This document shows positions 3,307 to 31,086 of a stretch of 31,086 bases of DNA, in pieces. Within the stretch, counting starts at the first letter, position 1; every line of letters begins with the position of its first letter. Made by a program: the position numbers and the translations under genes. The notes beneath the pieces were generated by a model. That model had not been told where the DNA came from and did no database searches. It worked only from the letters and a program-made list of their open reading frames with translations. This stretch comes from a virus (lineage: Duplodnaviria; Heunggongvirae; Uroviricota; Caudoviricetes). Where the stretch lies: IMG/VR virus record IMGVR_UViG_2540341091_000008. The stretch is one strand, 5' to 3'.

Positions 3307-3882
3307 CTACGGCAGTGCTGGCCATTCAATATCCTGTGCAGTTGACGTATCAACACGGTTCAGCAATACCCGATACTTTTTCCATGCTTCCAGCAACGAG
3401 ATTTCTTCCTCCGTTGCAATTTCCAGATCTGCAGCATCCTGAAGCGGCGCAATATGCTCACTGGCTACCTGCATCAGGTTGTTTTTTGTTTCTTCCGCCT
3501 CCCGGATCCGGAACAGTTTTTCTGCTTCCGTATCCTTCACCCAGGCTGTGCCGTTCCACTTCTGAAACTCCCCTTCCGGGGATAACCAGGTGACATTTTC
3601 CGGTAATGGGCCAAGTTCAGAAATAAATAACGCGTCGCCGGAAGCCACGTCATAGACGGTTTTACCCCGATGATCTTCAACGAGATGCCACGATGCCTCA
3701 TCACTGTTGAAAACAGCCACGAAGCCAGCCGGAATATCTGGCGGTGCAATATAGGAACTGTTTGCTGGCAGACCTGTATGAGGCGGAATATATGCGTCAC
3801 CTTCACCAATAAATTCATTAGTTCCGGCCAGCAGATTATAAATTTTTATGGTCCGTGGTTGTTCACTCATTCTGAATGCCAT
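3307..3882 (-). CDS. tfaQ: tail fibre assembly protein, 191 aa
   Basis: Tfa-family sequence; ATG overlaps the stop of the upstream tail-fibre ORF (TAATG). Confidence 0.9.
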
Positions 3883-12129: not shown

Positions 12130-12400
12130 GATGTTACCGTAGTATGTGAGTATCCATCGAATAGATACCAAGCAAAAAAGCTCCCGAAGGAGCCTTCATT
12201 TTCACTTTTTTAAATCCAACGACAGACGGCTGGCATTTAAGTATTGTGAAATATTATCAAATGTAATCATCATTGATTTACAAAAGATACATTTTGCCCC
12301 GAAAGGATTCATGTCAGAAACATCAAAAGATGATGTTCTATACTGGGAACCATGACAACACGGGCATCTAAAGTGAATATGGTTTGTAATATTGTCTACC

Positions 12401-12613
12401 TCAAAGCGCCACTACATGAACAGCGGCAGGACCTTTAGGTCCGTTCTCAATACCAAATTCAACTTCCTGATTCTCAGTTAATGTTTTGAAATCGTTGCTC
12501 TGAATTGCTGAGAAATGGACAAACACATCTTTGCTGCCATCTTTCGGCGTGATGAAACCAAAACCTTTTTCAGGGTTAAACCATTTCACTAAACCAGTCA
12601 TTTTGTTAGACAT
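12401..12613 (-). CDS. cspI: cold shock protein CspI, 70 aa
   Basis: Cold-shock domain with RNP motifs KGFGFI and VFVHF. Confidence 0.95.
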
Positions 12614-12976
12614 AATTATTACCTTTTGAAGAAATTAGCCCTTGGGCAGAATGGTCCGAAAAAAAATATCAGAGAGAAAAACCAACAAGGAAATCTCAAG
12701 AGGTACAAATAATAAAATTATAACAATGACTGCTTCAGATAAATTTGTAACAAACCAGAACACCATTAACGCATGATTAACCACCCATAGCAAGGATTAC
12801 TTTTGTAAAGAAAAACACAGCAATGAAAGAATAGCTTTATTTATTAATAATAACGTGTCATTCTGATTAAGACCTTTTATCTTACCCTTAAGATTTCAGG
12901 AATTTTGGCTCATGGAAGAGTCCTTTTTATTTAAATTTTACATTCCGCGATGTAAATGTTCCGATTTAATATTACC

Positions 12977-15006: not shown

Positions 15007-15285
15007 GATTGTGGTGCTTTTTGTGGGAGTCATCCACTTACGCACTTTGTTTTGCCATGCCAGCAGTTAGCTTCTGCTGTAAAACTATTCATGCAGCAAA
15101 CCTGCACTTCACCACAATGGTTAGCATACTTTTCCTGATTAAGATTTTGCCAAATATGCTGGCCATTGTTTCATGTATTGGACCTCCTTAATTTTTATTA
15201 AAGAAATCCAATATTCACTACTCTGTCCGTATCTCTACTCAGGCATCAGCCTTCTTCGTTATCGTATACAGACGAGCGATGAATT

Positions 15286-15501
15286 TTAATCAGTAATGAT
15301 GACATTTGCTGCTGCAGGACCTTTAGCACCACTCTCTATAGAGAAGGTAACCTTTTGACCTTCAAATAAGGTTCGATAATTATCATTCTGAATCGCAGAA
15401 AAATGCACAAACACATCTTTACTACCATCAACAGGAGAAATAAAGCCGAAACCTTTATCAGCGTTAAACCATTTTACTAAACCAGTCATTTTATTTGACA
15501 T
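15286..15501 (-). CDS. cspB: cold shock protein CspB, 71 aa
   Basis: Cold-shock domain; matches CspB as recalled. Confidence 0.95.
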
Positions 15502-15801
15502 TCTACATTCCTTAACTTGAGCCTTTCGGCATAAATGGTTTGCATAACAGAAACGACTTCGTACTTAATTGGAGAGACTCAAAGAAGGAATAAGTGAATA
15601 ACACCTGAAATGAGAACTGCTTTAGTAAACTACTTCGTATATCGTCTGTTCTTCAAACCGACGCAATCATTAACGCATAGTTGAACATATGAAGCAATGT
15701 TTATTTTAGACATCCAGCCATCTTCAACCCCATCAAAAAACTATAGCTTTCTTCAGGAACGTGTGTATAGTGCGCCAAGTTATCAGTATTAAGGAATTTT
15801 T

Positions 15802-18989: not shown

Positions 18990-19145
18990 TTACTCCTCAG
19001 GTTCGTAGACTGTGAAGACAGCGACCTCCGTCTGGCCGGTTCGGATTCGTACCTCGCAGAGGTCTTTCCTCGTTACCAGTGCCGTCACTATGACGGTTAA
19101 ACAGATGACGATCAGGGCGATTAACATCGCCTTTTGCTGCTTCAT
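18990..19145 (-). CDS. hokD: Hok-family type I toxin (HokD/RelF type), 51 aa
   Basis: MKQQKAMLIALIVICLTVIVTALVTRKDLCEVRIRTGQTEVAVFTVYEPEE; one TM plus conserved C-terminus. Confidence 0.9.
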   Translation of the reverse strand: MKQQKAMLIALIVICLTVIVTALVTRKDLCEVRIRTGQTEVAVFTVYEPEE

Positions 19146-19356
19146 AGCCTGCTTCTCCTTGCCTTTTGGCACGTAAGAGGCTAACCTAGATTTGCCGTTC
19201 ATAGATTGAGCCTCAGATTAATGTTAAGCGTCTTGCAGGACGCGTAATGTTAACTGGGGCTTTTCTCTATCTGCCTTTGGTGTTCATGCCTGAGACAGAT
19301 AGCCTCAAGCACCCGCAGCCATTCTACTTAACTCCCGTCACCTGGCCAATATAAAA

Positions 19357-19731: not shown

Positions 19732-20757
19732 TTAATTACCCTTATCAATTTTAAGAAATACATTTCCAATCTCATCAGAATAATCCTGTATTATTTTTGA
19801 AATGACGGCATGATCAATGGTTGGTTTTAAGAATAAAAGTGTCACAGTAATCTGCATCAAACTAATAGCAGTAGCATGGGCTGGATCAGCCATTCCTGAA
19901 TCACTTTGCCCGACCAATAATATATCATCACCAGTTTCACAGAGACCAAGCCTATTTCTCATTGCCTTGGAACCGGTGTGTACATTCTGACTCGCCCACT
20001 TATAATAAGGGCGCATGTGTTCTAACTGAACATCTTTCTCAATAGCTCCAAACCCCACTTTATTATGGTTAGGGAAAATATAAGATGCCCACCCATAATT
20101 ATCTGCATATTTTTTGCCGTATTTTTTTATTAATAGATCAAATTGAACTTTACACTCAGCTATTTCTTCAATAGTTGGACCTTTTGCTTCTAACCGGTGC
20201 TCGTACTTTTTGTGTTCCAACATTCCAGTATATGAATCAACCACTTCATGGTAGTAAAAGCGCTCAGCACACTCTTTTCCATGCTTTGCTATAAACATAG
20301 CTGTGGCTGCTACCTCATGAAGTGCTCGCCATCTCGCTTGGGCAGCATCTGCAAATCCATTCTTTAAGAGACACAAAATTTCGTTGGCGATGTGGCAAGC
20401 TCTTGCGTGATGCCGAACGACTAAATCAAAAACCACATCCTCTTCAGAGGCAGCTTGTGGTCTATAAGAACGATTGAACTCTTCACCGGACTCCGTGCAT
20501 ATCACTATAAGTGTTTCGAGCAAATCAAAAGCCTCTGCCCATCTTGAAATATTTCTCTCAACAAATTCATCACAAAGAGAACGATGTTCTCTAAGCATTG
20601 CATTGGCCGAGCCAATAAGAGATTTTTTAACGACAATGGCTATTTTGGGAATTAGGTTATTAATTTCTTTTTCGATATCAGCGTCACCAGATAAATCAAG
20701 TCTCTCTTTTAAAAGGCTGTCTATGTGCTCAAGCAAAATATTATGAAAAGTATCCAT
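19732..20757 (-). CDS. hypothetical protein, 341 aa (345 from the upstream TTG), AT-rich moron; candidate accessory or defence gene
   Basis: Long clean ORF in a markedly AT-rich island flanked by AT-rich intergenic DNA; no family recognised by eye; contains RWRALH (Rx4H). Confidence 0.7.
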   Translation of the reverse strand: MDTFHNILLEHIDSLLKERLDLSGDADIEKEINNLIPKIAIVVKKSLIGSANAMLREHRSLCDEFVERNISRWAEAFDLLETLIVICTESGEEFNRSYRPQAASEEDVVFDLVVRHHARACHIANEILCLLKNGFADAAQARWRALHEVAATAMFIAKHGKECAERFYYHEVVDSYTGMLEHKKYEHRLEAKGPTIEEIAECKVQFDLLIKKYGKKYADNYGWASYIFPNHNKVGFGAIEKDVQLEHMRPYYKWASQNVHTGSKAMRNRLGLCETGDDILLVGQSDSGMADPAHATAISLMQITVTLLFLKPTIDHAVISKIIQDYSDEIGNVFLKIDKGN

Positions 20758-21378: not shown

Positions 21379-22284
21379 CTATATTTCCAGACATCTGTTA
21401 TCACTTAACCCATTACAAGCCCGCTGCCGCAGATATTCCCGTGGCGAGCGATAACCCAGCGCACTATGCGGATGCCATTCGTTATAATGCTCGAACGCCT
21501 CTGCAAGGTTCTTTGCTGCCGTTAACCCGTCTGGTTTGGGCATGATACTGATGTAGTCACGCTTTATCGTTTTCACGAAGCTCTCTGCTATTCCGTTACT
21601 CTCCGGACTCCGCACCGCCGTGTTCTTCGGTTCAAGTCCCAACATCCGGGCGAACTGGCGTGTTTCATTAGCCCGGTAGCATGAACCATTATCCGTCAGC
21701 CACTCCACTGGAGACGACGGAAGATCGTTGCCGAAGCGGCGTTCCACCGCTCCCAGCATGACGTCCTGTACTGTTTCACTGTTGAAGCCGCCGGTAGTGA
21801 CCGCCCAGTGCAGTGCCTCACGATCACAGCAGTCCAGCGCGAACGTGACACGCAGTCTCTCTCCGTTATCACAGCAGAACTCGAACCCGTCAGAGCACCA
21901 TCGCTGATTGCTTTCTTTCACGGCCACTCTGCCTGTATGTGCCCGTTTCGATGGCGGTACAGCAGGTTTTCGCTCAAGCAACAGCGCATTCTGGCGCATG
22001 ATCCGGTAAACACGTTTGGCATTGATCGCAGGCATACCATCAAGTTCTGCCTGTCTGCGAAGCAGCGCCCATACCCGACGATAACCATACGTGGGCAGCT
22101 CTCCGATAACATGGTGTATACGGAGAAGCACATCCGTATCATCAGTGTGACGACTGCGGCGGCCATCCATCCAGTCATCGGTTCGTCTGAGAATGACGTG
22201 CAACTGCGCACGCGACACCCGGAGACAACGGCTGACTAAGCTTACTCCCCATCCCCGGGCAATAAGGGCGCGTGCGCTATCCAC
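21379..22284 (-). CDS. insD: IS2 transposase OrfB (InsD), 301 aa
   Basis: Matches InsD as recalled; DDE integrase-like core. Confidence 0.95.
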
Positions 22285-22607
22285 TTTTTTGCCCGTCCAT
22301 ATTCAACGGCTTCTTTGAGGAGTTCATTTTCCATCGTTTTCTTGCCGAGCAGGCGCTGGAGTTCTTTAATCTGCTTCATGGCGGCAGCAAGTTCAGAGGC
22401 AGGAACAACCTGTTCTCCGGCGGCGACAGCAGTAAGACTTCCTTCCTGGTATTGCTTACGCCAGAGAAATAACTGGCTGGCTGCTACACCATGTTGCCGG
22501 GCAACGAGGGAGACCGTCATCCCCGGTTCAAAGCTCTGCTGAACAATTGCGATCTTTTCCTGTGTGGTACGCCGTCTGCGTTTCTCCGGCCCTAAGACAT
22601 CAATCAT
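22242..22607 (-). CDS. insC: IS2 OrfA (InsC), 121 aa
   Basis: [26 protein letters not shown]...; overlaps insD as expected for frameshift-produced OrfAB. Confidence 0.95.
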
Positions 22608-26279: not shown

Positions 26280-26332
26280 TTTCTGGTGACGTTTGGCGGT
26301 ATCAGTTTTACTCCGTGACTGCTCTGCCGCCC
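26280..26332 (+). ncRNA. dicF: DicF small regulatory RNA (53 nt, U-tract to about 26337)
   Basis: UUUCUGGUGACGUUUGGCGGUAUCAGUUUUACUCCGUGACUGCUCUGCCGCCC matches DicF as recalled; ends in a GGCGG/CCGCC hairpin plus U-run, immediately upstream of dicB. Confidence 0.8.
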
Positions 26333-26506: not shown

Positions 26507-26695
26507 ATGGAAACGTTATTACCAAACGTTAATACGTCTGAAGGTTGTTTTGAAATTGGTGTCACTATCAGTAACCCTGTATTTACTGAAGATGCCATTA
26601 ACAAGAGAAAACACGAACGGGAGCTATTAAATAAAATATGCATTCTTTCAATGTTGGCCCGTTTACGTCCGATACAAAAAGGATGCTGGCAATGA
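26507..26695 (+). CDS. dicB: cell-division inhibitor DicB, 62 aa
   Basis: METLLPNVNTSEGCFEIGVTISNPVFTEDAINKRK... matches DicB as recalled; GAGGA SD. Confidence 0.85.
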   Translation: METLLPNVNTSEGCFEIGVTISNPVFTEDAINKRKHERELLNKICILSMLARLRPIQKGCWQ

Positions 26696-26883
26696 ATACA
26701 GCATTTGCACTTGTTCTGACAGTTTTTCTTGTTTCCGGAGAGCCAGTTGATATTGCAGTCAGTGTTCACAGGACAATGCAGGAGTGTGTGACTGCAGCAA
26801 CCGAACAGAAAATTCCCGGTAACTGTTACCCGGTCGATAAAGTTATTCACCAGGATAATAACGAAATCCCGGCAGGTCTTTAA
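26692..26883 (+). CDS. ydfD: YdfD-like small membrane protein, 63 aa
   Basis: ATGA overlap with the dicB stop; N-terminal TM segment. Confidence 0.75.
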   Translation: MNTAFALVLTVFLVSGEPVDIAVSVHRTMQECVTAATEQKIPGNCYPVDKVIHQDNNEIPAGL

Positions 26884-26975
26884 AACAGTTCCGTAATAAA
26901 CATCCGATTTCATTCTTATATGCCAGCAATGGCAGGGATTTGTTCACCCTTAAATCTGTAATGAGGTAAAACAAA

Positions 26976-29447
26976 ATGAGTAAAGTCTTTATTTGCGCCG
27001 CCATTCCGGACGAACAGGCAATAAAGGAAGAAGGTGCCGTCGCTGTAGCCACTGCCATTGAAGCCGGTGATGAACGTCGCGCCCGCGCAAAATTTCACTG
27101 GCAATTCCTGGAACATTATCCGGCTGCTCAGGACTGCGCTTATAAATTTCTTGTTTGCGAGGATAAACCCGGTATACCCCGCCCTGCCCTCGATTCCTGG
27201 GATGCTGAATATATGCAGGAAAACCGCTGGGATGAGGCGTCTGCTTCCTTTGTCCCGGTCGAGACTGAATCCGATCCGATGAACGTCACTTTTGACAACC
27301 TAGCCCCTGAAGTACAGAACGCTGTCATGGTTAAGTTCCACACATGTGAAAACATCACTGTTGATATGGTGATTAGCGCACAGGAATTGTTGCAGGAAGA
27401 CATGGCAACATTCGACGGCCATATCGTTGAAGCGTTGATGAAAATGCCAGAAGTTAACGCTATGTATCCGGAGCTTAAGCTGCATGCCATCGGGTGGGTT
27501 AAGCATAAATGTAAGCCTGGTGCCAAATGGCCCGAAATTCAGGCAGAGATGCGCATCTGGAAAAAACGTCGCGAAGGTGAACGCAAGGAAGCCGGAAAAT
27601 ACACGTCTGTTGTTGATCTCGCCCGCGCCAGAACCAATCAACAGCACACTGAAAATTCAACAGGAAAAATCAACCCGGTCATTGCTGCCATTCATCGCGA
27701 ATACAAGCAGACATGGAAAATACTGGATGACGAACTGGCCTACGCTCTCTGGCCTGGTGATGTGGATGCCGGAAACATTGACGGCAGCATCCATCGCTGG
27801 GCAAAAAATGAAGTTATCGACAACGACCGCGAAGACTGGAAGCGTATCTCGGCATCAATGCGCAAACAGCCTGATGCCCTTCGCTACGACCGCCAGACTA
27901 TTTTTGGCCTTGTCCGTGAACGTCCGATCGACATTCACAAAGACCCTGTGGCACTGAACAAATACATTACTGAATACCTGACTACAAAGGGCGTGTTTGA
28001 AGATGAAGGAACAAATCAGAGCGCAACTGATACTCTCTCGTCGCCAGTACCAGAAACTGATGCAGTGGAAACGGCAATTCCGGACAACGAAAAAACCGAA
28101 TGCAAAGTGGAAGTCGAACCATCTGTAGAACGTGAGGGGCCGTTCTACTTCCTCTTCACCGACAAGGATGGCGAAAAATACGGTCGCGCAAACAAACTTT
28201 CTGGTCTGGATAAGGCGCTGTCTGCTGGGGCTACTGAAATCACGAAAGAAGAATATTTCGCCCGCAAAAACGGTACATACTCAGGTTCACAACAAAATAC
28301 TGGTGCATCTGACACGACCGCACAACCAGGGTCAGTAAAAGTTACCGCTGACGAAGTAAACAAAATTATGCAGGCAGCCAATATCAGCCAGCCTGACGCC
28401 GATGAACTGCTTGCAGTATCACGTGGTGAATTTGTTGAAGGGATTAGCGACCCGAATGATCCGAAATGGGTTAAGGGGATCCAGACCCGCGATTCTGTGA
28501 ACCAGAACCAGCAAGAAACGGAACAGAACGACCAGAAAGCGGAACAAAACAGCCCAAATACGCAACAAAACGAGCCAGAAACGAAACAACCTGAACCAGT
28601 AGTGCAACAGGAACCGGAAAAGATCTGCACCGCCTGCGGTCATAGCGGTGGCGGCAACTGCCCTGATTGTGGTGCGGTGATGGGTGACGCAACATACCAG
28701 GAAATATTCGATGGAGAGAATCAGCCTGAAGTTCAGGAAAATGATCCGGAGGAAATGGAAGGCACTGCGCATCAGCACAAGGAGAACACTGGCGGCAATC
28801 AGCATCATGCCAGCGATAGTGAAACTGGCGAGGCGTCAGATCCCTTAATTAAGGCGAACGGTCATCATAATCTCACATCCACCAGCAGAGCGGGGATTCA
28901 TCTGATGATCGACCTTGAAACCATGGGAAAAAATCCCGATGCCCCGATTATCTCAATAGGTGCAATATTTTTCGATCCGCAAACCGGAGATATGGGACCG
29001 GAATTTAGTAAGACTATCGATCTGGAAACTGCTGGCGGAGTCATTGATCGGGACACCATTAAATGGTGGCTTAAACAATCACGCGAAGCGCAATCTGCCA
29101 TTATGACCGATGAAATCCCGTTAGATGATGCACTGTTACAATTGCGGGAATTTATCGACGAAAACTCCGGTGAATTTTTTGTTCATGTCTGGGGAAATGG
29201 AGCCAACTTCGACAACACGATTTTGCGCCGTTCATACGAACGGCAGGGGATCCCCTGCCCGTGGCGTTACTACAACGATCGCGATGTACGCACAATCGTT
29301 GAGCTGGGGAAAGCCATAGACTTCGATGCCAGAACGGCTATTCCATTCGAAGGTGAGCGCCATAATGCACTTGATGACGCCCGTTACCAGGCAAAATACG
29401 TTTCAGCTATCTGGCAAAAACTGATCCCGAGTCAGGCTGATTCTTAA
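26976..29447 (+). CDS. ydfE: full-length YdfE-like protein, 823 aa, with C-terminal DEDDh (DnaQ-like) 3'-5' exonuclease domain
   Basis: GAGGT SD; C-terminal motifs IDLETMG (Exo I), WGNGANFDNTIL (Exo II), HNALDDARYQAKY (Exo III); internal CTACGH...CPDCG zinc-ribbon-like segment and Q/E-rich linker. Confidence 0.8.
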   Translation: MSKVFICAAIPDEQAIKEEGAVAVATAIEAGDERRARAKFHWQFLEHYPAAQDCAYKFLVCEDKPGIPRPALDSWDAEYMQENRWDEASASFVPVETESDPMNVTFDNLAPEVQNAVMVKFHTCENITVDMVISAQELLQEDMATFDGHIVEALMKMPEVNAMYPELKLHAIGWVKHKCKPGAKWPEIQAEMRIWKKRREGERKEAGKYTSVVDLARARTNQQHTENSTGKINPVIAAIHREYKQTWKILDDELAYALWPGDVDAGNIDGSIHRWAKNEVIDNDREDWKRISASMRKQPDALRYDRQTIFGLVRERPIDIHKDPVALNKYITEYLTTKGVFEDEGTNQSATDTLSSPVPETDAVETAIPDNEKTECKVEVEPSVEREGPFYFLFTDKDGEKYGRANKLSGLDKALSAGATEITKEEYFARKNGTYSGSQQNTGASDTTAQPGSVKVTADEVNKIMQAANISQPDADELLAVSRGEFVEGISDPNDPKWVKGIQTRDSVNQNQQETEQNDQKAEQNSPNTQQNEPETKQPEPVVQQEPEKICTACGHSGGGNCPDCGAVMGDATYQEIFDGENQPEVQENDPEEMEGTAHQHKENTGGNQHHASDSETGEASDPLIKANGHHNLTSTSRAGIHLMIDLETMGKNPDAPIISIGAIFFDPQTGDMGPEFSKTIDLETAGGVIDRDTIKWWLKQSREAQSAIMTDEIPLDDALLQLREFIDENSGEFFVHVWGNGANFDNTILRRSYERQGIPCPWRYYNDRDVRTIVELGKAIDFDARTAIPFEGERHNALDDARYQAKYVSAIWQKLIPSQADS

Positions 29448-29519
29448 TGTTCAACTGTCGCCGGTTGTGACTGGTATTCTGCAACCGGCGCTCGTCTGAT
29501 GTAAGAGATAAAGAAATCG

Positions 29520-29771
29520 ATGAGCGAAGTAATCATGATTGTCTCTCCCGGCAAATGGGTATCCGAAGAGCAGTTAATTGCGCTGAAAGGAATAAAAAAA
29601 GGTACGTTAAAAAAGGCCCGGGAAAAATCGTTTATGGAAGGAAGGGAATATAAGCATGTCGCTCATGACGGTATGCCATGGGATAACAGTCCATGCTTTT
29701 ACAACCTGGAAGAAATTGATCGCTGGATTGAGCGCCAGGCATCAGCAAGACCAAGACGTCATCTTACTTGA
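29520..29771 (+). CDS. excisionase-like protein, 83 aa
   Basis: Small basic ORF immediately upstream of the integrase; typical Xis position. Confidence 0.6.
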   Translation: MSEVIMIVSPGKWVSEEQLIALKGIKKGTLKKAREKSFMEGREYKHVAHDGMPWDNSPCFYNLEEIDRWIERQASARPRRHLT

Positions 29772-29805: not shown

Positions 29806-31086
29806 ATGAAATATCCGACAGGCGTGGAAAACCATGGAGGGAAATTACGTATCTGGTTTGTTTATAAAGGCGTAAGAGTCAGGGAAAACCTGGGGGTTCC
29901 TGACACAGCAAAAAACAGGCGCGTTGCAGGTGAGCTACGCGCCTCTGTTTGTTACGCAATAAAAACTGGTGTTTTCGACTATGCAAAACAGTTTCCCTCC
30001 TCACGCAATCTGGAAAAATTTGGTGAGGCCCGACAAGATTTAACCATAAAAGAACTGGCTGAAAAATTTCTGGCACTGAAAGAAACTGAAGTCGCAAAAA
30101 CATCACTCAACACATACCGTGCCGTCATCAAAAATATCCTGAGCATAATCGGTGAAAAAAATCTTGCCTCATCGATTAATAAAGAAAAATTACTGGAGGT
30201 TCGTAAAGAGCTACTGACTGGATACCAGATCCCCAAAAGTAACTATATTGTTACACAACCAGGGAGATCGGCTGTAACTGTAAATAATTACATGACAAAT
30301 CTTAACGCCGTGTTCCAGTTTGGTGTTGATAACGGTTACCTGGCAGATAACCCGTTTAAGGGGATCTCGCCATTAAAGGAATCAAGAACCATTCCGGATC
30401 CTCTTTCGCGGGAGGAATTCATCCGTCTTATCGATGCGTGCAGAAATCAGCAAGCCAAAAATTTATGGTGTGTTTCTGTTTATACTGGCGTTCGCCCTGG
30501 TGAGCTGTGTGCACTTGGATGGGAGGACATAGATCTGAAAAATGGAACAATGATGATCAGGAGAAATTTAGCAAAAGACCGTTTCACGGTACCAAAAACA
30601 CAGGCGGGAACCAATCGGGTCATTCATCTTATTAAGCCAGCAATCGACGCTCTCCGGAGTCAGATGACATTAACGAGACTGAGCAAAGAGCATATCATTG
30701 ATGTTCACCTCAGAGAGTATGGCAGAACAGAAAAACATAAATGCACCTTTGTTTTTCAACCTGAAGTGTCAGCGAGAGTAAAAAATTATGGTGACCATTT
30801 TACCGTTGACTCAATAAGGCAGATGTGGGACGCAGCGATAAAACGTGCCGGACTCCGCCATCGAAAATCATATCAGTCGAGACATACTTATGCCTGCTGG
30901 TCGCTGACAGCTGGTGCTAACCCAGCATTTATAGCAAACCAGATGGGCCATGCAGATGCGCAAATGGTATTTCAGGTATACGGAAAATGGATGTCTGAAA
31001 ACAATAATGCACAGGTAGCTTTGTTAAATACACAGTTAAGCGAGTTTGCCCCAACCATGCCCCATAACGAAGCAATGAAAAATTAA
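29806..31086 (+). CDS. intQ: phage integrase (tyrosine recombinase), about 426 aa; stop codon is at the window edge
   Basis: N-terminus MKYPTGVENHGGKLRIWF... typical of lambdoid integrases; C-terminal catalytic region with R...HxxR...Y motifs. Symbol assigned by position at the prophage end. Confidence 0.85.
   Translation: MKYPTGVENHGGKLRIWFVYKGVRVRENLGVPDTAKNRRVAGELRASVCYAIKTGVFDYAKQFPSSRNLEKFGEARQDLTIKELAEKFLALKETEVAKTSLNTYRAVIKNILSIIGEKNLASSINKEKLLEVRKELLTGYQIPKSNYIVTQPGRSAVTVNNYMTNLNAVFQFGVDNGYLADNPFKGISPLKESRTIPDPLSREEFIRLIDACRNQQAKNLWCVSVYTGVRPGELCALGWEDIDLKNGTMMIRRNLAKDRFTVPKTQAGTNRVIHLIKPAIDALRSQMTLTRLSKEHIIDVHLREYGRTEKHKCTFVFQPEVSARVKNYGDHFTVDSIRQMWDAAIKRAGLRHRKSYQSRHTYACWSLTAGANPAFIANQMGHADAQMVFQVYGKWMSENNNAQVALLNTQLSEFAPTMPHNEAMKN

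Follow-up and report, generated by a model that had tools for sequence, protein, structure and literature searches.

In the Rac prophage, a kil-type gene is followed by a large nuclease gene and, further on, by xis-int. The large gene encodes RecE (exonuclease VIII), in which a long scaffold bears a C-terminal catalytic head, a 5'-3' nuclease of the PD-(D/E)XK type, and the gene next to it encodes the RecT annealase. A different kind of nuclease is represented by DexA of phage T4, Rv2179c of M. tuberculosis and EcD of E. coli, which are standalone proteins of about 170-230 aa carrying the five catalytic residues of a DEDDh domain. T4 DexA is documented as a 3'-5' DNA exonuclease. The T4 genome record annotates it as involved in host DNA degradation, and the same link is made in PMC12153337, where the plasmid-borne EcD (GenBank HAK9828821.1) is presented as a standalone E. 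coli homologue of the PF16473-type domain.

In lambdoid phages, DnaQ-type nucleases occur beside int, according to a recent article (Genome Res 2025, PMC12315714), which names LLS as the prototype of the lambdoid phages that have no "Rec module", this being a contiguous cluster with a single-strand annealing protein, either alone or together with a nuclease, SSB or anti-RecBCD function. The text examined treats the DnaQ-type nucleases near int and the "RecE-2" proteins separately, and a fusion of the two is not described in it.

Here, we analysed a viral DNA of 31,086 nucleotides (Caudoviricetes; IMG/VR record IMGVR_UViG_2540341091_000008), referred to below as the window, in which all positions are counted. 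It represents a defective lambdoid prophage of the Qin type, and one gene of its early left operon encodes a modular protein of 823 aa, a RecE-family scaffold fused to a predicted DEDDh exonuclease of the DexA/Rv2179c/EcD family. Unlike those standalone enzymes, the exonuclease is the C-terminal head of the larger protein. In E. coli K-12, this locus holds the same gene as an annotated pseudogene (ydfE, b1577, in Qin), which corresponds to aa 1-256 at 95% identity, ends where IS2E starts, and is without domains 2 and 3, the zinc ribbon and the nuclease described below. An earlier note on this DNA had described the K-12 gene as a truncated fragment beside an IS2, and this was accurate, the pseudogene being cut by IS2E after codon 256.

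The intact ydfE gene and its operon

The ORF listing gave a single frame at exactly 26976..29447 on the plus strand, which agrees with the intact 823-aa ORF claimed in the earlier note; it starts with ATG and its end includes the TAA. A Shine-Dalgarno sequence, GAGG, is located at 26963..26966 (+), with the ATG 9 nt further downstream. Upstream and on the same strand lie the DicF sRNA (26281..26332), a member of the early-left (dicB) operon, dicB (26507-26695) and, immediately before the ORF, ydfD (26692-26883), and no convincing promoter or terminator was found in the interval from dicB/ydfD to the ORF. Downstream, xis (29520-29771, +) begins 72 nt after the stop codon and is followed by int (29806-31086, +). 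The gene adjoins dicB/ydfD and xis-int and occupies the same slot as recE-recT in Rac, as had been proposed. The recombinase partner reported as missing is indeed missing: tblastn with RecT, with lambda Bet, Exo and Gam, and with two further RecT-like proteins returned nothing in the window, and xis is the next gene. Judged by the definition of a Rec module in PMC12315714, neither the early left operon nor the window as a whole contains an annealase, Gam or SSB homologue, and the gene fits a separate category of that paper, the DnaQ-type nuclease genes "very near int".

The idea that the ORF is a fusion artefact of two genes, raised earlier as a possible objection, can be ruled out by its recurrence and by its dN/dS values. 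The same ORF of 816-830 aa recurs in thousands of 90%-identity clusters in a homologous-protein search, and is intact in independently sequenced, viable phages. Purifying selection acts on every folded domain, with dN/dS values of 0.03-0.15 as against 0.4-0.7 for the linkers. Since the gene is also intact in viable phages, its function appears to have been retained. At Met644, an internal start that would yield a free nuclease, no convincing Shine-Dalgarno sequence was found.

The gene is very common and already widely annotated, and Pfam holds the families YdfE_N and YdfE_C. At least 80% of its length was covered in 3,533 of the 5,426 complete E. coli genomes, often with several copies per genome, and the carriers include pathogens bearing Stx phages. 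In addition, 738 phage records matched the query, nearly all through the DEDDh domain.

Domain organization of the YdfE protein

The first ~625 residues are predicted to form a non-catalytic scaffold. In overall build YdfE resembles RecE, since its scaffold is long, with disordered stretches in the structural model, and the catalytic head comes last. Domain 1 (aa 1-225; 26976..27650, +) has a YdfE_N-type alpha/beta fold (PF27430), with a model pLDDT above 90 and a dN/dS of 0.09; RecE differs here in having an Exonuc_VIII domain (PF06630) at its N-terminus, and this RecE module also stands in place of Domain 1 in some relatives of YdfE. Domain 2 (aa 245-345; 27708..28010, +) is helical and of the YdfE_C type (PF27432), is common to YdfE and RecE (about RecE residues 278-360), and has a pLDDT above 93 and a dN/dS of 0.15. 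Together, aa 1-345 fall within these two Pfam families by precomputed assignments, which were made on cluster representatives 90-95% identical to the window protein. Domain 3 (aa 388-435; 28137..28280, +) is small and built from beta-hairpins and helices, with a pLDDT of about 90-95 and a dN/dS of 0.03, and is unaligned in Rac RecE.

Beyond these domains lies a highly conserved motif (aa 471-500, LLAVSRGEFVEGISDPNDPKWVKGIQTRD; 28386..28475, +), nearly identical in RecE, with a dN/dS of 0.12. The linker that follows (aa 501-545; 28476..28610, +) is rich in Q, E, N and P and predicted to be disordered, and its composition of 17% Q and 12% E matches the Q/E-rich linker of the earlier note. The Cys4 zinc-ribbon-like element, also claimed there, was located at aa 546-575 (28611..28700, +), with C551, C554, C562 and C565 in the pattern CTAC-x7-CPDC (CxxC-x7-CxxC); it is kept in RecE, and model confidence is only moderate. 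An acidic, His-rich disordered linker (aa 576-641; 28701..28898, +) then leads to the nuclease. The view that the N-terminal region is of unknown function stood in part: a search of solved structures gave no match for the scaffold domains, but aa 262-625 are homologous to RecE residues 278-591.

The DEDDh exonuclease head

The last 182 residues (aa 642-823; 28899..29444, +; dN/dS 0.09) are a predicted 3'-5' exonuclease of the DexA/Rv2179c-type DEDDh family with a complete active site. PF16473 (Rv2179c-like) matched aa 642-813 with E=1e-66 and 224.5 bits, against a curated cut-off of 27 bits, and model positions 2-177 of 177 were covered. In an alignment with T4 DexA, gp34 of phage LLS and the fusion protein of phage 813R8, D646 and E648 (Exo I, 28911-28919), D746 (Exo II, 29211-29213), and H796 and D801 (Exo III, 29361-29378), all on the plus strand, are invariant. 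The earlier proposal of a C-terminal DEDDh domain with three Exo motifs, to be abandoned if these residues were not conserved on alignment, is borne out by the Pfam match and by the retention of all five catalytic residues. RefSeq often names the protein a 3'-5' exoribonuclease, and PF16473 is itself named after such an enzyme.

T4 DexA was the sole solved-structure match, with 29% identity to the head. The insertions of DexA and its "5hmC" residues W152 and D169 are absent from the YdfE head: W152 corresponds to Y765, and D169 lies within a DexA-only insertion missing here. An identity as HREX, a 5hmC-recognising enzyme of the DexA type, was rejected on these grounds. HREX enzymes are further characterised by loss of the S87/D90 tetramer contact; in the YdfE head, D718 corresponds to D90, and Pro takes the place of S87. 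EcD differs from YdfE as well, since, by its primers, it begins MIDTET and ends TIPETY. A 20-mer from an EcD primer found a chance match in one viral contig, with neither an exonuclease ORF nor a forward-primer site.

Kinship with RecE and the exchange of the head

BLASTP aligned aa 262-625 with RecE residues 278-591 (E=2e-60) at 38% identity overall, rising to about 78% in the blocks 481-520 and 561-600, and both the GISDPNDPKWV motif and the Cys4 ribbon lie within the homologous region. At the nucleotide level, only nt 1425-1874 resemble recE, with an identity of 76% that starts in the motif at aa 471-500. The NCBIfam RecE model (equivalog PRK09709) matched aa 248-626 only, through model positions 273-603 of 877, and its score of 271 is below the cut-off of 1269. 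No significant BLASTP alignment was obtained past RecE residue 591, and YdfE lacks the C-terminal, RecB-like PD-(D/E)XK domain that acts in RecE as a 5'-3' dsDNA exonuclease.

Domain 2, the motif at aa 471-500 and the Cys4 ribbon share, as judged from these alignments, common descent with RecE. Given the homology of aa 262-625, the positional analogy with recE reflects true shared ancestry together with a swapped nuclease head. Compared with Rac recE-recT, the cassette of a PD-(D/E)XK 5'-3' nuclease and the RecT annealase has given way to a single DEDDh 3'-5' head, with the swap junction at about aa 625-642. The linker at aa 576-641 holds this junction because RecE homology stops at about aa 625. 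The junction linker contains a Chi octamer (minus strand, GCTGGTGG, 28879..28886), which all four examined DEDDh fusion genes keep and Rac recE lacks, and which may mark the route of head exchange.

Modular relatives and Rec-module-less phages

A homologue search with the full protein returned only E. coli copies at least 90% identical and thus no diversity; relatives were taken from a search of 50%-clustered representatives with aa 1-640. The 47 long representatives that were typed combine YdfE_N or RecE_N scaffolds with a DEDDh, a PDDEXK or a third C-terminal head, and phage 813R8 carries the combination of RecE_N and DEDDh. The type of head goes along with the neighbouring gene. An adjacent RecT-type annealase follows the PDDEXK heads in four of four cases (Rac, P0132, P0189 and P0219) and the DEDDh heads in none of six (the window, Tritos, PPompW, 813R8, P0251 and P0122), where xis/int is directly next, the six DEDDh contexts being phylogenetically non-independent.

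A standalone version of the head is found in LLS, whose gp34, a DnaQ-like exonuclease, is 58% identical to the YdfE head and has the same position in the early left operon, immediately upstream of xis-int. The phage context also matches, with no Rec module and with Chi sites present. The two differ in that gp34 is a free protein of 190 aa, whereas in YdfE a RecE-type scaffold precedes the domain in the same protein. Homologues of RecT, Bet, Exo, Gam and the RecE nuclease were found in none of the window, Tritos and HannyBb, and their Chi sites number 6, 9 and 5, respectively, on the top strand and 2 each on the bottom strand. With 8 Chi sites in 31 kb, the window is about as dense in Chi as the E. 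coli chromosome and, for this reason, its Chi content may reflect amelioration and not selection. HannyBb, with five top-strand sites, is below the threshold of 8 given in PMC12315714.

Proposed function and alternatives

We see an even chance that YdfE is an early-left-operon 3'-5' DNA-end exonuclease of lambdoids that lack Red, RecET and Gam but carry oriented Chi. The protein would be produced once DicA/CI-type repression ends, on induction or infection, and its flexible scaffold would place the Mg2+-dependent 3'-5' exonuclease at DNA 3' ends or 3' tails. Trimming of 3' ssDNA ends would then let linear phage DNA be handled by the host RecBCD-Chi/RecA pathway and, unlike RecE, the enzyme would generate no 3' tails for a phage annealase. 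Such trimming seems the most likely activity because there is no annealase, Exo or Gam and because Chi is biased to the virion top strand. Several considerations weigh against this role. According to PMC12315714, 3'-5' exonucleases generally inhibit recombination, and other DEDDh exonucleases of bacteria or prophages have been assigned roles in defence (PMC12153337, PMC13344964). Moreover, the sequence does not reveal whether the substrate is DNA or RNA. A wider reading, which we regard as conceivable but rather unlikely, is that the N-terminal and middle region of the RecE family is a head-independent targeting platform into which lambdoids plug alternative effector cassettes, the DEDDh version being the end-processing factor of Rec-module-less lambdoids that makes phage DNA ends substrates for recombination-dependent growth through host RecBCD-Chi. 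The cassettes would be PD-(D/E)XK with RecT, DEDDh alone, and the third C-terminal module.

The same head could serve in prophage defence or superinfection exclusion, degrading incoming phage nucleic acid to which the scaffold directs it, either modified (5hmC) DNA, which has been claimed as the target of EcD, the E. coli homologue of DexA ("HREX"), or RNA-phage genomes attacked from their 3' ends, as demonstrated for TONDO/ISG20-like exonucleases. E. coli prophages, defective ones included, carry the gene extremely often, and DicB, from the same operon, is reportedly protective against some phages when expressed. Furthermore, EcD digests T4 DNA and blocks T4 (PMC12153337), and prophage-borne DEDDh exonucleases with auxiliary domains block MS2 and Qbeta (PMC13344964). 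However, EcD is another protein than YdfE, the 5hmC-recognition residues of DexA are not preserved, and the scaffold is common to a recombination enzyme and not to a defence protein. A catalogued defence system was likewise rejected, as the sole match in PADLOC-DB 2.0 was to a Cas-associated generic DEDDh domain and was weak (E=1.4e-5, 23.8 bits). Since the operon is repressor-controlled and no promoter of its own was detected, the gene should also be silent in the lysogen, and on balance we consider a defence role improbable. 

The early position of the gene in the lytic phase is also what would be expected of an anti-defence or host-takeover nuclease, which would destroy host immune nucleic acid, such as retron msDNA, ssDNA made by DRT systems or oligonucleotide signals, or break host DNA down to nucleotides for reuse like T4 DexA. 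The annotation of DexA for host DNA degradation (T4 genome record; PMC12153337) points the same way, as do the accessory genes known to occur near int in the early-left region of lambdoids (PMC12315714). Such a role, though, would leave the purifying-selected RecE-type scaffold of 640 residues without a role and the strict alternation with the PDDEXK and RecT cassette unexplained. Degradation of host DNA is also not known from temperate lambdoids, and this role is very doubtful. It is equally hard to credit an exoribonuclease that, like Rv2179c, trims phage or host RNA from the 3' end, for example dicB-operon transcripts or DicF precursors. The best Pfam family takes its name from the M. tuberculosis enzyme, many RefSeq copies are named accordingly and DicF shares the operon with the gene, but the enzymes credited with maturing DicF are RNase III and RNase E, and the sole solved-structure match, T4 DexA, is a DNase. 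In addition, a dsDNA exonuclease has the scaffold in common with YdfE, and in place of the head other relatives have a cassette of DNA nuclease and annealase.

Implications

Roughly two out of three complete E. coli genomes encode YdfE, and no functional work on the protein was found in the literature on ydfE, Rv2179c and PF16473/DUF5051. Were it a defence nuclease after all, few others in E. coli would be as prevalent. The head exchange amounts to a natural experiment, in which the scaffold was kept while a 5'-3' nuclease and its annealase were exchanged for a 3'-5' nuclease. That the scaffold was retained suggests that its role is independent of RecT and of the polarity of resection, and makes the role of the first ~600 residues of RecE, which matter for direct cloning with full-length RecE, directly testable. 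For the lambdoid phages that grow via host RecBCD and Chi without a recombinase of their own, YdfE is a candidate for the missing factor.

Domain architecture of the intact YdfE protein

The intact ydfE gene is a single plus-strand ORF of 823 aa at 26976-29447, coordinates that the ORF listing reproduced exactly from the earlier note, and a Shine-Dalgarno sequence (GAGG) lies 9 nt 5' of its ATG. The protein is spanned end to end by PHROG 2082. As had been proposed from the sequence alone, it ends in a DEDDh exonuclease domain (aa 642-823, hereafter the head) with all Exo motifs and an intact active site: the domain matches PF16473, the Rv2179c-like 3'-5' exoribonuclease domain, over the whole model (E=1e-66; 224.5 bits, cut-off 27), and when it is aligned to T4 DexA, gp34 of phage LLS and the fusion protein encoded by phage 813R8, D646, E648, D746, H796 and D801 are the same in all four. 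T4 DexA (PDB 8KEL) was the sole relative with a solved structure found by sequence. The zinc-ribbon-like Cys4 element (CTAC-x7-CPDC; C551, C554, C562 and C565) and the Q/E-rich linker (aa 501-545; 17% Q, 12% E) of the earlier note are both present in the translation. The note also correctly described K-12 ydfE as a truncated fragment beside an IS2: this annotated pseudogene (b1577) corresponds to aa 1-256 of the full-length protein, to which it is 95% identical, and is cut off at the start of IS2E.

The N-terminal region had been described as being of unknown function, which overlooked a kinship to RecE at aa 262-625. Against the NCBIfam RecE equivalog model, aa 248-626 score 271 bits, far below the cut-off of 1269 and with only model positions 273-603 of 877 covered, and BLASTP aligns aa 262-625 with residues 278-591 of K-12 RecE (E=2e-60). 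The two proteins are near-identical in the motif LAxSRGEFVxGISDPNDPKWVKGIQTRD and in the CxxC...CxxC ribbon; at the nucleotide level, likeness to recE is confined to nt 1425-1874 of the gene (76%). In RecE, the nuclease domain comprises residues 564-866, while the N-terminal part, to which no function is assigned, is dispensable for basic recombination and boosts linear-linear recombination (reviewed in PMC11611040). The RecE homology of YdfE ends just inside this nuclease boundary, and the DEDDh domain starts 17 residues on. As the protein has neither the RecE nuclease domain nor a RecT partner, it is not a RecE family member; judged by its sequence, it belongs to the DexA/Rv2179c DEDDh family and is carried on a RecE-family scaffold, and it is thus a naturally head-swapped form of a known type of phage recombination nuclease.

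A Chi octamer is located on the minus strand at 28879-28886, in the linker between the end of the RecE homology and the head. It is kept at the same codons in the fusion genes of Tritos, PPompW and 813R8 and is missing from Rac recE; it could be a trace of head-swapping recombination or a coincidence.

Module shuffling and the annealase partner

A search with the 640 non-catalytic residues among 1.84 billion representatives clustered at 50% identity gave just 249 matches (56 with E<=1e-30), many of them fragments. The 47 that are 450 aa or longer were typed with module probes and Pfam, and several combinations were found. Besides classical RecE and the window type (YdfE_N, middle, ribbon and DEDDh), RecE_N is joined to the middle, ribbon and DEDDh modules in P0128, P0251 and phage 813R8, among others; the 813R8 gene is 94% identical to the window gene in DNA from aa ~453 on, and the protein shows 59% identity to RecE at its N-terminus. 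YdfE_N and the middle module are joined to a PDDEXK nuclease in P0132 and P0189 (both with Pfam DUF3799) and in P0219. In P0125 (locus L014, 5001-7109), P0129, P0133, P0139, P0151, P0167 and P0184, they precede a C-terminus of ~250-350 aa with no Pfam match, and the only PHROG match of P0125 is phrog_26058, a family without assigned function. This C-terminus is a third type of 'head', and such proteins may be the 'RecE-2' proteins without recognisable nuclease mentioned in PMC12315714. Newer Pfam releases already assign YdfE_N (PF27430) and YdfE_C (PF27432) on these proteins. In P0121 (527 aa), a natural internal deletion has removed domain 3, the zinc ribbon and the conserved motif, so that scaffold aa 1-369 are joined straight to DEDDh; this variant may be in decay, or may be a pared-down version that still functions.

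The genomic neighbors divide according to the head. A RecT-type annealase directly follows all four PDDEXK genes (Rac RecE, P0132, P0189 and P0219; Pfam RecT at 2e-36 beside P0132, RecT-like phrog_561 at 1.5e-97 beside P0219), whereas xis/int directly follows all six DEDDh genes (the window, Tritos, PPompW, 813R8, P0251 and P0122). The difference (4/4 versus 0/6) gives a Fisher's exact p of ~0.005, with several of the DEDDh loci closely related. P0125, with the no-Pfam head, likewise leads to xis/int, in a kil-to-xis slot without annealase, and nearly every context examined has a kil-type gene (KilR or DicB) on the upstream side. By this split, nuclease and RecT act as one cassette to which the DEDDh head is the alternative. 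For genes built like the window gene, the missing recombinase partner remarked on earlier is the norm.

For aa 1-640, an AlphaFold2 model based on a 50-sequence alignment of relatives (mean pLDDT 75) predicts three confident domains (pLDDT >90): alpha/beta at aa 1-225, helical at 245-345 and a small beta-hairpin/helix at 388-435. Residues 470-500 are of moderate confidence, the ribbon is weakly defined and the linkers are disordered. Between the window gene and its 92% identical Tritos copy, dN/dS is 0.09, 0.15 and 0.03 for domains 1 to 3, 0.12 for the 471-500 motif, 0.09 for the head and 0.4-0.7 for the linkers, indicating that all folded modules are kept by selection.

The prophage setting

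The window, 100% identical to chromosomes of APEC O78:H4 strains, spans an entire defective prophage of the Qin type, which occupies the ydfJ/rspB locus. Its genes run from truncated ydfJ, pinQ, tfaQ and truncated tail-fibre and protease genes, through portal, terminase, lysis genes and antiterminator Q, to hokD/sok, an IS2 in a DUF977 gene, a replisome organiser, YdaT, a cro-like gene and the repressor, followed by ydfA/B/C, DicF (Rfam), dicB, ydfD, the window gene, xis and int. As no convincing promoter or terminator was found between dicB/ydfD and the window gene, the latter is read as the last large gene of the repressor-controlled early-left operon. In the gap between its stop and xis, a perfect 8-bp inverted repeat, GCCGGTTG...CAACCGGC (29460-29467 and 29482-29489; loop 14 nt), lacks a T-run and is thus not a typical intrinsic terminator.

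The IS2 (21379-22607, minus strand; programmed-frameshift transposase) lies in the replication region. This insertion and the truncation of the tail-fibre, head-protease and ydfJ genes show that the prophage is defective; the exonuclease gene is nonetheless intact. A DUF5677-domain gene (19732-20757, minus strand) is flanked by hokD and the replication genes, whereas K-12 Qin carries relBE, ydfV and flxA between hokD and the dicC/dicA immunity region; it may represent a swap of accessory or defence cargo. Rfam matches on the minus strand comprise IS009 inside tfaQ (3341-3539), the cspA-type thermoregulator leaders of cspI and cspB (12374-12759 and 15270-15662) and the sok antitoxin RNA of hokD (19140-19314).

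A possible role in DNA-end processing

No homologues of RecT, Bet, Exo, Gam or the RecE nuclease were found in the window or in the complete phages Tritos and HannyBb. Chi occurs 6/2, 9/2 and 5/2 times on the virion top/bottom strands of the window remnant, Tritos and HannyBb, respectively, the top being the late-gene strand. RecBCD requires blunt or near-blunt ends. PMC12315714 describes a lambdoid class without Rec module and with at least 8 active-orientation Chi, whose prototype, LLS, grows better with RecBCD. All three genomes match this class as one of Chi-bearing phages without Rec module, and Tritos also has the specified number of Chi. LLS carries a standalone DnaQ-like exonuclease, 58% identical to the window head, in the slot near int.

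Our favoured hypothesis is end-processing in a phage dependent on host recombination, given the absence of Rec genes, the top-strand Chi bias, the fit of Tritos to the Rec-less class and the blunt-end need of RecBCD. The gene would be expressed on derepression, and its product would act as a 3'-5' exonuclease on DNA 3' ends, trimming single-stranded 3' tails so that phage ends become RecBCD substrates. Against this hypothesis, the density of Chi in the window is about that of the E. coli chromosome. A further counterpoint is that 3'-5' exonucleases are usually anti-recombinogenic (PMC12315714).

A defence nuclease is an unlikely alternative, although it has precedents: the E. coli DexA homologue EcD is said to degrade only 5hmC DNA and block T4 (PMC12153337), and prophage-borne DEDDh 'TONDO' exonucleases with auxiliary domains stop RNA phages (PMC13344964). 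However, the window gene lies in a repressed lytic operon, and EcD is not the same protein: it is standalone, and its primers encode MIDTET...TIPETY. HREX or defence protein status is not demonstrable for the window protein, since neither DexA W152 (Y765 here) nor D169 (in a DexA-only insertion) has a conserved equivalent and the PADLOC match is weak and generic only. Anti-defence or nucleotide scavenging, conceivable for an early gene, would leave the conserved RecE-type scaffold without a role and is improbable. The Pfam family name and the RefSeq product name would favour an RNase, but the DNA-enzyme context makes this equally hard to credit.

At least 80% of the gene was found by megablast in 3,533 of 5,426 complete E. 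coli genomes (median of 2 matching places per genome), where copies are annotated 'exonuclease' or '3'-5' exonuclease', and the protein collection holds >7,800 clusters at 90% identity, one with 23,183 members. Among phages that are viable or were induced, full-length copies occur in mEp460, Tritos, HannyBb, PhiR42_1, Evi and the PPompW family. Not every copy is intact, however: according to its annotation, a deletion has shifted the frame of the one in PPompW_EH1846, an O26-type prophage (L011, 7001-9468). The literature search, which covered the main text of PMC12315714, found no functional study of ydfE and no description of the fusion or of the RecE head-swap relationship. This protein type is present throughout the catalogues but characterised nowhere, and its chief value is as a way into what the RecE N-terminal region does and into DNA-end handling by lambdoids without a Rec module.
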